A DNA stretch of 64,000 nucleotides from a virus (Duplodnaviria > Caudoviricetes), in IMG/VR virus record IMGVR_UViG_3300033075_001817, positions 853 to 64,852 of that record. The stretch is one strand, 5' to 3'. The notes under the pieces are model-generated. The model was not told where the DNA came from. It worked only from the letters and a program-made list of their open reading frames with translations, and made no database searches. The position numbers and the translations under genes are program-made. Each line of letters begins with the position of its first letter. The first letter of the stretch is position 1. Of the stretch, positions 11,239-52,977 are shown in pieces.

Positions 11239-11520
11239 ATGTTCCCCTGGCTCATCGTGACCGCGCTCGCCGCGGTCGTGGCCGCTCTCTCCCTCGCGCT
11301 CGCCATGCAGCGCGACCTCCACGCGATCCGCGGCAAGCGCGTCGAGCGCATGCAGAAGCGCGAGGACGCCCTCTACGACCTCTCGCGCCGCTGGCTCGAC
11401 GAGGCAGCCGCGCACCGGACCGTGCACGGCATCGAGCACGACGGCGCGGACTACGCGGGTGGGCTCATCGACGCGGCGGCAGAGCTCGAGCTCGCCCTCG
11501 ACGATGGGGAGGACGCGTAG
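11239..11520 (+). CDS. Hypothetical protein with N-terminal TM helix
   Basis: Hydrophobic N-terminus; RBS AAGGAAG. Confidence 0.55.
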   Translation: MFPWLIVTALAAVVAALSLALAMQRDLHAIRGKRVERMQKREDALYDLSRRWLDEAAAHRTVHGIEHDGADYAGGLIDAAAELELALDDGEDA

Positions 11521-12093
11521 ATGCGTCGCGCCTCGATCGTCGCGCTGATCCTCGCGCTCGCATGCGCGGTCGTGCCGGCCGTGCTCGCGACCCTCGCGCG
11601 CGGCCAGGAACGCGACGAGCTGCAGGTCCCCGACGACACGCTCCGCGATCTCGTCCGCATCGGCGCGCACGAAGCCGGCCTCGACTCGCCCGCCGACCTC
11701 GATGGGATCTGGGCGGTCTGGGTGCGCGGCGCCGAGCGCGAGGAGATGAGCATCGACGCGTTCGCCCGCGCCTACTCGCGCCGCGCCTTCGCCGGCACCG
11801 ACCGCGCGATCAACCAGTGGGCCATGGAGCTCGAGCTCGACTGCGGCGCGCCGCCGAGCCTCCATCTGCCGTGGGATCGCGCGCGAGTCGGTGGCGAGCA
11901 GCCACGCCGCGATGCGTGCCTCGCCCTCGTCGCTCACGCGCGTGAGGTCGTCTCCTCGCCGCTCGTCTGCGAGGCCGACGACTGGGGCAGCGCGGCCGAC
12001 TTCCGGCTGATGCGCGCGCGCGGCGGTCATCCCGTGATGGTCGCGTGCGGTCCCGGCGCGCGGAACCTCTTCTCCCGTCGCGGAGGGCGCTGA
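11521..12093 (+). CDS. Secreted/membrane-anchored hypothetical protein
   Basis: Signal-like N-terminus; RBS GGGAGG. Confidence 0.6.
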   Translation: MRRASIVALILALACAVVPAVLATLARGQERDELQVPDDTLRDLVRIGAHEAGLDSPADLDGIWAVWVRGAEREEMSIDAFARAYSRRAFAGTDRAINQWAMELELDCGAPPSLHLPWDRARVGGEQPRRDACLALVAHAREVVSSPLVCEADDWGSAADFRLMRARGGHPVMVACGPGARNLFSRRGGR

Positions 12094-12094
12094 G

Positions 12095-12244
12095 ATGGAC
12101 GCGCTCTTCGCCCTCGCGCTGCTCGCGTGCGTGCTGGGCCTCGTGCTCGCGCCCGTGACGCGCTCGCTCCGCATCGAGCTGGGTGTCCTGGATTCCACGA
12201 TCGAGAAGCTGGATCCGCGCAAGGGCGGACGGGAGGGGTCATGA
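12095..12244 (+). CDS. Small membrane peptide
   Basis: Not in the ORF track; MDALFALALLACVLGLVLAP. Confidence 0.4.
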   Translation: MDALFALALLACVLGLVLAPVTRSLRIELGVLDSTIEKLDPRKGGREGS

Positions 12245-37360: not shown

Positions 37361-37876
37361 CTACTCGAGCACGAGCCGGACGGTCGTGTAGTGCGACTCG
37401 GCCGACTGCTCGTAGGGCGGCGTCGGGTTGTTGTGCGTGAGGGTCGCGGTCCCGCAGTTCACGACGACGTGCCCCGCCTCGATGAAGGCGGTGCCGGAGA
37501 TCAGACAATCGGGCCGCGGGGGCAGCGTCGATGAGCACTCGGGCGCGTCGCACGCGGGCGGCGGGTCGACGACGTTGCCACACGAGATGGTGGTGATGCG
37601 GCGGACGGTCGCCGGATCGATCGACGCGTCGCGGAAGTCGGCCGCGTAGGTGACCTGCTCGCCGCGCGACCCGTTCGCGTAGAGGTAGTCGAGCGAGCCG
37701 ATCGGTTGGCACGGCGCCGTCATGTCGACCTGCGCGGCCGCGGAGTCGCTCGCCGCATCGCGCATCGACTCGCCGACATCGATCCAAGCGTCCGCGAAAT
37801 AGACGGCCGCGGGCGAGCTGCACGCCCACGCCCCCAACGCGATCCCCAGCACCAAGAGCGCCCGCTTCGTCGTCAT
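37361..37876 (-). CDS. Antisense-oriented Cys-rich lipoprotein (moron-like)
   Basis: MTTKRALLVLGIALGAWA-C lipobox; six further Cys; exactly fills the gap between spike and wedge genes. Confidence 0.7.
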   Translation of the reverse strand: MTTKRALLVLGIALGAWACSSPAAVYFADAWIDVGESMRDAASDSAAAQVDMTAPCQPIGSLDYLYANGSRGEQVTYAADFRDASIDPATVRRITTISCGNVVDPPPACDAPECSSTLPPRPDCLISGTAFIEAGHVVVNCGTATLTHNNPTPPYEQSAESHYTTVRLVLE

Positions 37877-46134: not shown

Positions 46135-46518
46135 GTGGTCCAGCTGATCCTCTCTCAGCCGGTCGCGTTCGCGGCTGTGCTTGGCGCGCTCGCGCTCATC
46201 CTCAACCGCGTCGCCGAGCTACTCAAGGTCGTCGCCGATCGCTTCGGCCCGCTGCTCGCCGCCGTCACCGACGCGATCCGCGCGTGGGCTCGGAAGACGA
46301 CCGACGAGCGCGAGTGCGCTGCGAAGCTCGCCGAGGCGATGCACCAGATCGAGGCGCTCCGCGCAGAGCTGCGCGAGCTGCGCGCCGAGGTGGAGAGCGG
46401 CGTCGCGCCCATCTCGAGCCCGACGCACGTCGTCGAGGTGAGCGCCGAGGAGCCCACCGGCGAGCAGCGACTTCCCGCGGGGGTCCCGCCCCTGCCGCAG
46501 AGGAGAACGAACCGATGA
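46135..46518 (+). CDS. TM plus coiled-coil protein (i-spanin- or holin-like)
   Basis: N-terminal hydrophobic helix, then LAEAMHQIEALRAELRELRAEVE; RBS AGAAAGG. Confidence 0.55.
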   Translation: MVQLILSQPVAFAAVLGALALILNRVAELLKVVADRFGPLLAAVTDAIRAWARKTTDERECAAKLAEAMHQIEALRAELRELRAEVESGVAPISSPTHVVEVSAEEPTGEQRLPAGVPPLPQRRTNR

Positions 46519-47267
46519 AGAAGTGGATCGAGAGCTGGACCATCCCGCAGGCGGTCATCGCCGGCATCTCGCTCGTGTGCGTCACGGCGCTCGCGATCGT
46601 CATCACGCTCGAGGACGACTGGGGGAAGCTGGTGCGCTGGCTCAGCTCCGGCGAGGCCATCGCGCTCGTGGGCTCTCTCGCGACACTGCTCGCCGTCATC
46701 TACGACCGCGCCCGCAAGCTCCCTCCGCCTCCGAAGCGGTCCGAGAGCACCACGCCTCCCCGCTCCTCGGAGGGCGGCTACGCGCTCGTCGAGGTGATGC
46801 TGGCGATCTGCTTCGTCGGCGCGGCCGTGCTGCTCCTGCACGGATGCGGGCAGACCACGCCCGTCGCGCAGCAGGCCGCCGCGGTGGACGTGGCCGCGAC
46901 CTTCGTCTCCGGCGTCGGCGATGGCGTGAGCCAGGCCGCCGCGTACGACGCGCAGCGCACGTGCCCGCACGGCTCCGATCCGGCCTGCCTCGATCCCGTC
47001 TTCGCGCGCTGGGCCCCCGTCGACGCGGCGCTCTCCGCTGCGCGCTCGGCTCTCCAGCTCTGGCTCACCGCCGACCGCATCGCCGCCGCTGCGAACGAAG
47101 ATCCGATCGCCGCGTGCCTCGACGAGATCGACGACTTCGCGCGCGCGCTGCTCGATGCGCTCCACGCCGCTCGGCTGCTCGGCGCCGCGGTGCCCGACGT
47201 CCCGCCGCTGATCTGCGCCCTGCCGGGCGTGCCCGCGGATCTCTGCACCTCCGGAGGTGAGTCGTGA
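46515..47267 (+). CDS. Holin-like membrane protein with internal prepilin-cleavage motif and lipobox
   Basis: Two TM helices, basic Pro-rich linker, G88|YALVE93VMLAICFVG, LLHG-C111, helical C-terminal domain. Confidence 0.65.
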   Translation: MKKWIESWTIPQAVIAGISLVCVTALAIVITLEDDWGKLVRWLSSGEAIALVGSLATLLAVIYDRARKLPPPPKRSESTTPPRSSEGGYALVEVMLAICFVGAAVLLLHGCGQTTPVAQQAAAVDVAATFVSGVGDGVSQAAAYDAQRTCPHGSDPACLDPVFARWAPVDAALSAARSALQLWLTADRIAAAANEDPIAACLDEIDDFARALLDALHAARLLGAAVPDVPPLICALPGVPADLCTSGGES

Positions 47268-47632
47268 TCGGCGACGAGAAGATCGTCGAAGCGTGCGCGC
47301 GCGCCGCTCACGAAGCGAACCGCGCCTACTGCATCGCGCTCGGAGACCTCTCGCAGCCGTCGTGGGATGACGCGCCCGAGTGGCAGCGATCGAGCGCGCG
47401 CAACGGCGTCCGCGGTGCTCTCGCCGGCAACACGCCCGAGCAGTCGCACGAGTCGTGGATCGCCGAGAAGGCCGCGACGGGCTGGAAGTTCGGGCCCGTG
47501 AAGGACCCGGAGAAGAAGGAACACCCGTGCTTCGTGCCGTACGCCGACCTCCCGCCGGCGCAGAGGGCGAAGGACGGAATCTTCATCAGCGTCGTCCGAG
47601 CGATCGGCGCCGCGCTCGGAGGTGAGTCGTGA
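47264..47632 (+). CDS. RyR-domain protein
   Basis: TPEQSHESWIAEKAATGWKFGPVKDPEKKEHPCFVPYADLP..QRAKD. Confidence 0.88.
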   Translation: MIGDEKIVEACARAAHEANRAYCIALGDLSQPSWDDAPEWQRSSARNGVRGALAGNTPEQSHESWIAEKAATGWKFGPVKDPEKKEHPCFVPYADLPPAQRAKDGIFISVVRAIGAALGGES

Positions 47633-47826
47633 TCGGCACCATCGTCGTCCAGGCCCTCAACATCATCGCCGCGATCGCCCCCGGGCTGCTCGCCGCGATG
47701 ACCAACCACACGAGCGACGCGGACGCCATCGCTCACGCCCAGCGCACGATCGACGAGATCCCGCACGACCCGGCGCGGACCGCGATCGAGAAGTGGAAGC
47801 ACGCGCTCGAGCAGTCGCGGCGATGA
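47629..47826 (+). CDS. Small amphipathic/membrane protein
   Basis: Hydrophobic N-terminus; coupled overlap. Confidence 0.55.
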   Translation: MIGTIVVQALNIIAAIAPGLLAAMTNHTSDADAIAHAQRTIDEIPHDPARTAIEKWKHALEQSRR

Positions 47827-48152
47827 TCCGGAACTACCCGTGCGCCTGCCGGTGGTGCGCCGGCACGACCGCGGTCACGTACCGGAACGGATCGACCGTC
47901 TCGACTTCGGCCTACGCGAACTGCATCACGATCGGTGCCGCACCGTCGCCCGCGCCCGAGCCGCTCCGCTACTTCCGCGACGCGCTCCCCGTCTCGCATC
48001 TGCTCGCCGAGCAGGCCGAGCGCGAGCGCGCCGATCAGGCGAAGGCGCGCAGCAACGCTCAGCGCGCGCTCCGGCTCGTCTCGGGCCGCCGCGTGGCCGA
48101 GCAGCGCGCCGCGCTCTCCGTGCGGGCCTCGGCGCTCCGGAGGGCGGCGTGA
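47823..48152 (+). CDS. Hypothetical protein
   Basis: CACRWC; coupled overlap. Confidence 0.45.
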   Translation: MIRNYPCACRWCAGTTAVTYRNGSTVSTSAYANCITIGAAPSPAPEPLRYFRDALPVSHLLAEQAERERADQAKARSNAQRALRLVSGRRVAEQRAALSVRASALRRAA

Positions 48153-48490
48153 AGCCGCAGCGCGCGCAGCGGCTCGAGCGGCTCGTCGACGCGGCCCCGA
48201 AGTACGTCTACGAGGCAGGCGCCTCGGCGCGCGCGGGGATCTCCTTCGACTGCCCGATCCACGGCGACGGGTGCCGTGTCGCCGTCCCGTTCGCGAACCC
48301 GCCAGACGGGCCGCCCGGAGCATGGGCCGCGAGCCGCGAAGGAGGCTGGCATCGCGACGGCGACTCGTTCGAGGCGATGACGCTCTCACCGTCGATCCAC
48401 GTGACCGGCGAGAAGCACGGTCCCGATCGCTGCGAGTGGCACGGCTTCATCCGCGCCGGCCGCTTCGAGCACTGCGACGACTCGCGCTGA
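48149..48490 (+). CDS. DUF6527-like protein
   Basis: FDCP...TLSPSIH...CEWHGFIRAG. Confidence 0.65.
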   Translation: MKPQRAQRLERLVDAAPKYVYEAGASARAGISFDCPIHGDGCRVAVPFANPPDGPPGAWAASREGGWHRDGDSFEAMTLSPSIHVTGEKHGPDRCEWHGFIRAGRFEHCDDSR

Positions 48491-51944: not shown

Positions 51945-52225
51945 CCAGCTCGGACGAGCTGCGGGCCGCGATCGCCATCGTCGATCGCTACCTCGCCGAG
52001 CACGATCCGGGCGGCGCTGCCCAGACCGCGTGGACGCTCTGCCGCGGTGAGCTGCGGCGCCGTCGATCGCAGAGCGAGCGCTCGCTCCCCGCCGCTGCCC
52101 GAGCCGCACAGCTCGCCGCTCAGCTCGCCGAGAAGGGCAGCACCGAGGATGTCCGCGCGATCGGCCAGTCGATCCTCGACTCGCTCCGCACGGTCGCAGT
52201 CGCACCACCGGAGGACACGAGATGA
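51941..52225 (+). CDS. Hypothetical protein
   Basis: Coupled overlap. Confidence 0.5.
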   Translation: MTSSDELRAAIAIVDRYLAEHDPGGAAQTAWTLCRGELRRRRSQSERSLPAAARAAQLAAQLAEKGSTEDVRAIGQSILDSLRTVAVAPPEDTR

Positions 52226-52977
52226 GCAACGCCGCGATCACCGCACGCTACCCCGCACAGCTGCCCGCAGGCTTCTCGGGGGCTGGCTTCTTCCTCGGCG
52301 CCGGCGACATGGTGGGCGACCATCAGCACGGCGTGAAGCGGCTGCTCGACGCGGGCGCCACGACGAGCTTCGTCCTGATCGAGAGCGTCGAGGGAACGCG
52401 TCAGCCCGCCACGCGCGTGCGGGACGTCTGCATCGCGCACCGCGAGCGCGACATCGAGCCGTGGCTCTTCACGTTCCCCACGTGCGCGCGGATCGACTCG
52501 GCCGTCGATCACCTGATCGAGTGCGGGCAGCTCGCGAACGTGCGGAAGGTGGTGCTCGACCTCGAGCCCTACCGCGATCCGAAGAGCGGTCGCCTCTACG
52601 ACTGGACCGAGCGCGACATCGCCGACCTCGTCACGAAGGTGCGCGCGGCCGGCTTCGAGATCGCGATCACCGTCTTCACCAGGAAGGCGTGGTCGCGCAT
52701 CGCGTGGGACCGCATCGCGCCGGGCGTGCCGATCCTTCTGCAGGTCTACGAGCGCGTCGCCGACGAGGACGAGCTCGCCGCCGCGATCGCGCAGTGGCCC
52801 GGCCGGACGGTCGTGCTCTGCCTCGCGACGTACCTCGGCCCCATCGAGCGGCTCCGGCACGACCTCGCGAACGCGCGGGCCCATTCGCAGAAGGTCGGGG
52901 CGGCCGCGTTCTGGAAGCTCGGGTCGACCGACCTCGCCGAGGCCCGCACGGTGTGCTCGTGGATCGTCTCGATCTGA
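52222..52977 (+). CDS. Putative endolysin, GH25-like TIM-barrel glycoside hydrolase
   Basis: beta/alpha periodicity, VVLDLEP (DxE), ILLQVY; no other lysin candidate in the late arm. Confidence 0.5.
   Translation: MSNAAITARYPAQLPAGFSGAGFFLGAGDMVGDHQHGVKRLLDAGATTSFVLIESVEGTRQPATRVRDVCIAHRERDIEPWLFTFPTCARIDSAVDHLIECGQLANVRKVVLDLEPYRDPKSGRLYDWTERDIADLVTKVRAAGFEIAITVFTRKAWSRIAWDRIAPGVPILLQVYERVADEDELAAAIAQWPGRTVVLCLATYLGPIERLRHDLANARAHSQKVGAAAFWKLGSTDLAEARTVCSWIVSI

Follow-up and report, generated by a model that had tools for sequence, protein, structure and literature searches.

The window, i.e., the 64,000-nucleotide stretch of DNA that we analysed, covers nearly all of a 64,852-bp IMG/VR virus record that is rated complete by CheckV. 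The phage has a G+C content of 71%, and comparisons with Pfam and PHROGs identified a head scaffold, a Mu gp48-like baseplate protein and GP4-type fibre proteins in the window. The phage is probably temperate, to judge from an ORF of integrase length and a candidate ImmA-type switch in the window. A diderm envelope is assumed throughout, on the basis of the capsid protein, whose matches are to proteobacterial phages only and are distant (31–36% identity).

Six genes on the plus strand, spanning 46135 to 48490, are linked one to the next through 4-nt overlaps of start and stop codons. This cassette has the gene for the gp48-like baseplate/fibre protein on one side and more fibre genes on the other. 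The gene at 46135..46518 encodes a protein of 127 aa (P0002) with an N-terminal hydrophobic helix, a coiled-coil region containing one Cys, and a Pro-rich C-terminus; Pfam and PHROGs gave weak coiled-coil matches only. The gene ends in a 4-nt overlap (ATGA) with the beginning of P0001 (46515..47267, 250 aa), the focal gene, and the ATG of P0001 that lies within this overlap has GAGGAG 6–11 nt upstream. Following P0001 are a gene with an RyR domain (47264..47632; PF02026, E 3e-11) and g64 (47629..47826), which specifies 65 aa comprising an Ala/Gly-rich N-terminal hydrophobic helix and a short soluble tail.

The P0001 product can be divided into a two-TM module, a cytoplasmic linker, a putative internal lipoprotein signal and a predicted periplasmic helical domain. 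The N-terminal module (aa 1–67, 46515..46715) carries TM helices at aa 9–34 and 47–64 and is holin-like in size and topology. It is followed by a basic, Pro-rich loop, predicted to be cytoplasmic (aa 65–88, 46707..46778), that ends in E-G-G; in close relatives the first half of this linker is variable and the P-P-R-S-x-E-G-G part is kept. A third helix (aa 89–110, 46779..46844) begins with the pilin-like residues Y-A-L-V-E and would form the h-region of the internal signal, which closes in the lipobox L108-H-G-C111 (46836..46847). The remainder (aa 111–250, 46845..47264) is the predicted mature lipoprotein domain, with three long helices and a Pro-rich tail.

Hydropathy places TM segments at aa 9–34, 47–64 and 87–112, and the AlphaFold2 model (pLDDT 78) has helices at 2–32, 46–67 and 86–109, with those of the C-terminal domain at 116–149, 156–192 and 197–221 (pLDDT 87–97 over aa 120–190). 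The charges are K2 and K3 at the N-terminus, a net negative loop 1, and six K/R in loop 2, a distribution that fits the in-out-in-out topology (N-in, loop 1 out, loop 2 in, C-out) proposed in an earlier note on this DNA. The features listed in that note for the ORF at 46515–47267, i.e., two TM helices, a basic Pro-rich linker, GG-YALVE and LHGC111, are all present in the sequence, the hydropathy profile and the AlphaFold2 model, and its codon positions are right: read directly, Y89 is the TAC at 46779 and C111 the TGC at 46845. P0001 is coding in a single frame over its full length (GC3 = 0.92), and a GC3 scan found no frame switch at the proposed cleavage site, the values on either side being 0.94 and 0.91.

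Searches of Pfam, PHROGs and NCBIfam returned no family match for P0001, a PDB sequence profile search gave none, and its model had no Foldseek match at E<=0.001 among viral structures; in the ESM Atlas it matched unnamed clusters only, below 0.9. An exhaustive phmmer search against 1.8 billion cluster representatives recovered 68 relatives, all metagenomic and none named, and none of the related loci came from IMG/VR or from species genomes.

When the relatives are anchored on the homologous Cys, 31 are stand-alone lipoproteins and 36 are N-extended. In the stand-alone proteins (100–192 aa), the Cys falls at positions 10–63, as the last residue of an N-terminal lipoprotein signal of the ordinary kind, in which basic residues (at least one K/R in 29 of the 31) precede a hydrophobic stretch and x-x-[GAS]-C; Gly usually comes next. 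The Cys of the N-extended proteins is at residue 71–248 and that of P0001 at 111, rather than within about the first 15–35 residues as is usual for lipoproteins. All 67 relatives scored have x-x-[GAS]-C, and in an alignment of 43 sequences C111 is the sole invariant column, with G110 at least 90% conserved. The lipobox lies far beyond chance because the Cys is the only column to be invariant in these 43 relatives, and the comparison strongly supports the third helix as a lipoprotein signal with C111 as its lipid-accepting Cys, in agreement with the lipobox proposed earlier at this residue. One feature is atypical, the His at -2 of P0001, but the stand-alone and the N-extended groups each have further cases of LHGC or xHGC. 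With this His, P0001 falls outside the core pattern of PROSITE PS51257, which only 39 of 67 relatives match, 20 of the 36 N-extended and 19 of the 31 stand-alone ones.

An internal lipobox with His at -2 might also mean that P0001 stays uncut in the inner membrane, with three TM helices, a helical domain facing the periplasm and a Cys that serves, for instance, in a disulfide or in lipidation without cleavage, and the presence of other conserved Cys in the domain could be taken in the same sense. We regard this as improbable. The stand-alone relatives have the same Cys closing ordinary N-terminal lipoprotein signals, it is the single invariant residue, and because four other Cys (C150, C158, C234 and C244) are conserved in close relatives, C111 would be left unpaired. 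Other residues conserved in the mature domain are R165-W166-x-P168-x-D170.

A further argument against an uncut protein comes from relatives in which the two halves are separate polypeptides. At one locus (L021), the N-terminal module occurs as a protein of 79 aa with two TM helices (P0020), followed with a 4-nt overlap by a gene for a 75-aa lipoprotein that has its own N-terminal signal; this split form indicates that the halves can work apart, and by correspondence with it helix 3 of the fused forms would be the signal peptide of the separate lipoprotein. The module is also found on its own in P0014 (100 aa), and in P0008, P0012 and P0015–17 it is fused to a different small lipoprotein domain (about 60 aa, two-Cys), the C-part to which the 75-aa lipoprotein of the split form is homologous. 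In yet another arrangement, P0007, a PF11860 muramidase is fused ahead of a TM segment, lipobox and large C-domain like those of P0001. These distributions support the view that P0001 is a fusion of two modules that are also found as separate genes.

The lipoprotein might instead be translated separately, as a nested product from an internal start (GTG at 46794 or ATG at 46797); the earlier note had named a start near 46794 as an alternative. P0001 does have in-frame GTG and ATG codons at aa 94–95 with GAGG just upstream. However, this GAGG stands just 2 nt before the ATG, a relative with 86% identity (L012) no longer has it (GAA-GTG), and no ribosome-binding site precedes the candidate internal starts in L002, L007, L009 or L010. 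Across six loci, there is no conserved start or ribosome-binding site before the signal. The resulting signal of 16–17 aa would moreover have no basic n-region, unlike those of 29 of 31 stand-alone relatives. Separate initiation is therefore very improbable as the source of the lipoprotein.

The earlier note had also proposed that the host prepilin peptidase cuts P0001 at a class III (type IV prepilin) site, G88/Y89, and so gates maturation or the timing of lysis. The resemblance to type IV prepilins is real in that there is a Gly, the main requirement for prepilin cleavage when at -1, an aromatic residue next, an acidic residue at +5 and a stretch of about 20 hydrophobic residues, and this G-Y-A-L-V-E sequence is predicted to be on the cytoplasmic face; a looser motif, [ED]-G-[GS]-[FYS]-x-x-[ILV]-[DE], precedes helix 3 in about a third of the N-extended relatives. 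Yet the site is internal, 88 residues in and behind two TM helices, and its -2 and -3 residues are Gly and Glu, not basic. At a threshold of E<=10, P0001, nine relatives and a six-frame translation of the phage record were all without a match to either of the pilin profiles TIGR02532 and PF07963, for which positive controls respond in 11 of 14 genomes.

Nor is the motif a property of the family. Among the 36 extended representatives, the strict form G-[FYMLIV]-x3-E is confined to three, P0001 and its two closest relatives (>=77% identity); G-x4-E is found in five, G-x4-[DE] in 12 (one of them spurious) and neither in 24. At +1 the residue is often Ser, and at +5 it is more often Asp, with some Arg, His or Thr, and P0015–17, which have the same N-domain and a minimal linker, lack the motif altogether. 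Conservation of G(-1), E(+5) and the Cys had been suggested as a check on the proposal: the Cys is invariant, but G(-1) and E(+5) are kept in a close clade only, an outcome that the note itself had listed as refuting it. The hexamer alone is not beyond chance, since G[FY]xLxE occurs once in 88 predicted proteins and shuffles give an expectation of 0.33 per proteome. A second cut 22 residues upstream would also have no evident purpose, because cleavage by LspA alone would release the lipoprotein. Prepilin-peptidase processing is thus refuted at the comparative level, and we give it hardly any credence; what remains of the G-Y-A-L-V-E region is a semi-conserved juxtamembrane motif.

The surroundings of P0001 are best read with those of its relatives. 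Genes for a helix and coiled coil lie upstream of N-domain members in the window and in six related loci (L002, L009, L010, L020, L021 and L022) and are absent ahead of the stand-alone lipoproteins in L008 and L015. Sequence similarity among these upstream genes is undetectable, and the L021 analogue of P0002 has its TM segment at the C-terminus. With regard to the suggestion that the upstream gene is the i-spanin, a hydrophobic helix with a coiled coil recurs at this position; P0002 itself is i-spanin-like in layout only.

On the downstream side, in L002, L009, L012 and L015, homologues of g64, which has 21 relatives, all unnamed, come directly 3' of the C-domain lipoproteins, and L013 has one close by. 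In the window, the RyR-domain gene is an insertion between P0001 and this usual partner: it is missing in the 86%-identical relative, where a g64-type gene follows directly, and a 20-nt junction, GGAGGTGAGTCGTGATCGGC, is duplicated around it (47253–47272 and 47618–47637). The partner pattern is modular, with g64-like genes after large-C-domain members, whether stand-alone or fused, and a different small gene downstream of small-C-domain members (L010, L022). As part of a lysis cassette, the genes would most likely form two co-varying pairs, a coiled-coil protein with the two-TM module and a lipoprotein with its small partner.

That the cassette is a lysis cassette, which we consider most likely, follows from the company that the relatives keep. 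In L002 the order is coiled-coil gene, P0005, g64-like gene and the N-terminus of a muramidase; in L022 it is coiled-coil gene, P0015, a 102-aa gene and a PF11860 muramidase; and in L006 a muramidase is fused to the relative. Because a muramidase lies one or two genes from these relatives, or is fused to one, a role in lysis is likely.

No recognisable endolysin adjoins P0001 or occurs elsewhere in the phage record. Pfam and PHROGs revealed none among 27 ORFs of the phage, PF00959, PF01464, PF01510, PF01183 and PF00182 were absent from the six frames of the whole record, and a tblastn search of the phage with the muramidase of the relatives matched the C-domain only. The ORF 52222–52977, with which the late operon closes, has a predicted TIM barrel fold with mixed glycosidase and generic matches and is only a candidate endolysin; hhalign gave no significant match between it and the 264-aa gene downstream of the g64-like gene of L009. 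No PHROG or Pfam holin or spanin family matched P0001, P0002 or ten relatives. The earlier idea of one gene encoding both a holin and a lipoprotein is supported as to the fusion, the lipoprotein and the lysis-type context, by the split and fused relatives and their muramidase neighbours; the N-terminal part is a putative holin, by its architecture.

The position of the cassette in the window could suggest a different function, in which the lipoprotein modifies the envelope or excludes superinfecting phages, in the manner of T5 Llp and the Cor protein of lambdoid phages, and is encoded beside receptor-binding genes. Consistent with this, the cassette is flanked by the gp48-like protein and fibre genes, no endolysin adjoins it, in L008 and L010 the relatives are placed after fibre-like genes, and the phage is probably temperate. 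Against it, a muramidase is adjacent or fused at three of the loci described above (L002, L022 and L006), and the gene is tightly coupled in a late operon, unlike a moron with expression of its own; lysis cassettes, moreover, often come after fibre genes. A role outside lysis is in our view unlikely, though its probability is appreciable.

The balance of the evidence tips us towards reading P0001 as a natural fusion of a holin-like two-TM module with a periplasm-facing lipoprotein, whose signal is internal and which would be cut into two products as part of a lysis-type cassette. The first module would reside in the inner membrane with both termini in the cytoplasm, and the third helix, as a lipoprotein signal peptide moved to the interior of the polypeptide, would insert N-in/C-out. 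Once the protein is in the membrane with its C-terminus outside, lipidation of C111 by host Lgt would be followed by an LspA cut between G110 and C111, yielding a three-helix inner-membrane protein of 110 residues and a helical lipoprotein of 140 residues with Gly at +2, presumably sorted to the outer membrane. The lipoprotein probably works with the downstream g64 product and the two-TM module with the upstream helix/coiled-coil protein, and the two products may act as holin and spanin or serve another envelope function. The set would represent a late, translationally coupled membrane-protein cassette that serves as the lysis cassette in related phages. In the equivalent processing of P0007, the spent signal peptide would keep the muramidase anchored at the cytoplasmic face of the membrane.

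Several observations count against this account: the His at -2 of the lipobox, the location of the cassette among baseplate and fibre genes, an endolysin that is not adjacent, a helical domain of 140 aa that differs from known o-spanins, and no match of any part to a PHROG holin or spanin family.

Taken more broadly, and only tentatively, we suggest that a group of uncultivated phages uses LspA at an internal lipobox to derive, from one polypeptide, a lipoprotein and a holin-like protein that keeps the signal as its third helix or, from P0007, a tethered muramidase and the same lipoprotein. If so, the LspA cut would fix a 1:1 ratio and the co-localisation of two lysis components, and the split form, the fused form and the fusion with an enzyme would show one system at different points of its evolution. 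If the internal lipobox is used, P0001 and its relatives would, in addition, make up a lipoprotein family that is as yet uncharacterised and has a small conserved partner, in phages whose hosts are high-GC and in which profiles recognise no lysis genes. Lipoprotein predictors that need an N-terminal signal will miss such proteins.

Among described proteins, the precursors of ordinary lipoproteins (Sec/SPII) share with P0001 a basic region, an h-region and x-x-G-C with a small +2 residue, and the 31 stand-alone relatives are ordinary versions of this type; P0001 differs in having an n-region of 88 residues that includes a helical hairpin, and in its -2 His. In our survey of the literature, we came across no report of LspA acting in nature downstream of two TM helices, nor of a holin/o-spanin fusion, an internal lipobox or phage lysis that depends on a prepilin peptidase. 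The division of one membrane polypeptide into two proteins at an internal export signal has a parallel in FbcH of Bradyrhizobium (cytochrome b/c1), a polyprotein that is cut at an internal signal; FbcH uses signal peptidase I, as opposed to the LspA proposed for P0001, and is not from a phage. If its internal lipobox is used, P0001 would be a natural case of LspA serving a phage as a polyprotein-processing enzyme.

The class II holins (two TMDs, N-in/C-in) resemble the N-terminal module in their two TM helices, short periplasmic loop and charged cytoplasmic tail, and the module also occurs as a stand-alone protein of 79–100 aa (P0020, P0014) near a muramidase in relatives. It differs from them in matching no holin profile and in that the third helix would be kept after the proposed cleavage; the g64-like proteins and the 102-aa protein of L022 are equally good holin candidates.

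To the two-component spanins (lambda Rz/Rz1), the likeness is that P0001 directly follows a gene for a coiled-coil protein with a predicted membrane anchor and has relatives in lysis cassettes. Deviant lipoboxes (LNGC, FVGC, AWAC) have been recorded among spanins and are functional (SpaninDB, PMC6139136), and the lipobox of P0001 is likewise non-canonical. Known o-spanins are small and Pro-rich (PMC6139136), roughly 40–60-aa peptides, whereas the mature part of P0001 is a 140-aa three-helix domain, and its signal is internal, behind a two-TM module. Compared by sequence or by profile, P0001 resembles no spanin family, and no endolysin is adjacent in the window. The nearest known system is the combination of a two-component spanin and a class II holin, from which P0001 departs in sequence, in the size and composition of its lipoprotein and, here, in endolysin adjacency. 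With the internal lipobox in use, a membrane protein and a lipoprotein would arise from one reading frame, adding a fused form to the embedded, overlapped, separated and unimolecular layouts of spanins.

Many members of the family of P0001, the protein that joins a two-TM module to an internal lipobox and a lipoprotein domain, terminate in G-G-E(-S), irrespective of whether the domain is of the large or the small type. Because the corresponding codons in the window (GGA GGT GAG, within 47250-47267) double as the Shine-Dalgarno sequence for the next, overlapping gene, this 'conserved C-terminal motif' is probably the protein readout of a signal for translational coupling. Overlaps of 4 nt (ATGA/GTGA) join six consecutive genes over 46135-48490 into a tightly coupled block, whose contents are small membrane proteins and unknown proteins, with a DUF6527 protein encoded at 48149-48490.

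The RyR-domain gene at 47264-47632 is flanked on both sides by a 20-nt junction, GGAGGTGAGTCGTGATCGGC (47253-47272 and 47618-47637), comprising a ribosome-binding site, a stop and a start. Since the junction is duplicated and the gene is absent from L012, the locus of a related phage with an 86%-identical relative, the RyR-domain gene looks like a cassette that was gained or lost via recombination between duplicated gene junctions.

In the related phage locus L006 (4416-6158), a PF11860 muramidase is preceded by an esterase of the SGNH/GDSL type that carries a TM anchor at its C-terminus. The lipobox and lipoprotein domain are joined to this muramidase via a Gly-rich linker and a hydrophobic anchor that resembles the anchor of the esterase. 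The cassette is likewise preceded by large GDSL-lipase proteins in two further loci, L009 and L022.

No endolysin was recognised in the record of the phage studied here; the late operon ends with a gene (52222-52977, plus strand) whose product is a candidate for this missing enzyme or, alternatively, a candidate depolymerase. This ORF has no family match and only five relatives; its predicted fold is a (beta/alpha)8 barrel (pLDDT 81, pTM 0.83), and the top PDB matches of the model are GH20, GH5/26/113 and GH18 enzymes, but generic TIM barrels as well.

Three small early-region ORFs (11239-12244, plus strand), none with a family match, have N-terminal hydrophobic helices, and one of them begins like a signal peptide. 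Inside the plus-strand tail module, a minus-strand ORF (37361-37876) has a clear lipoprotein signal when read from the internal Met at residue 81 (long-ORF numbering). The signal ends in the lipobox A-W-A-C, and the ORF may be a moron or may encode an exclusion lipoprotein. Lipoboxes of this unusual type have been tested in the u-spanins of PB1-like phages (PMC6139136).
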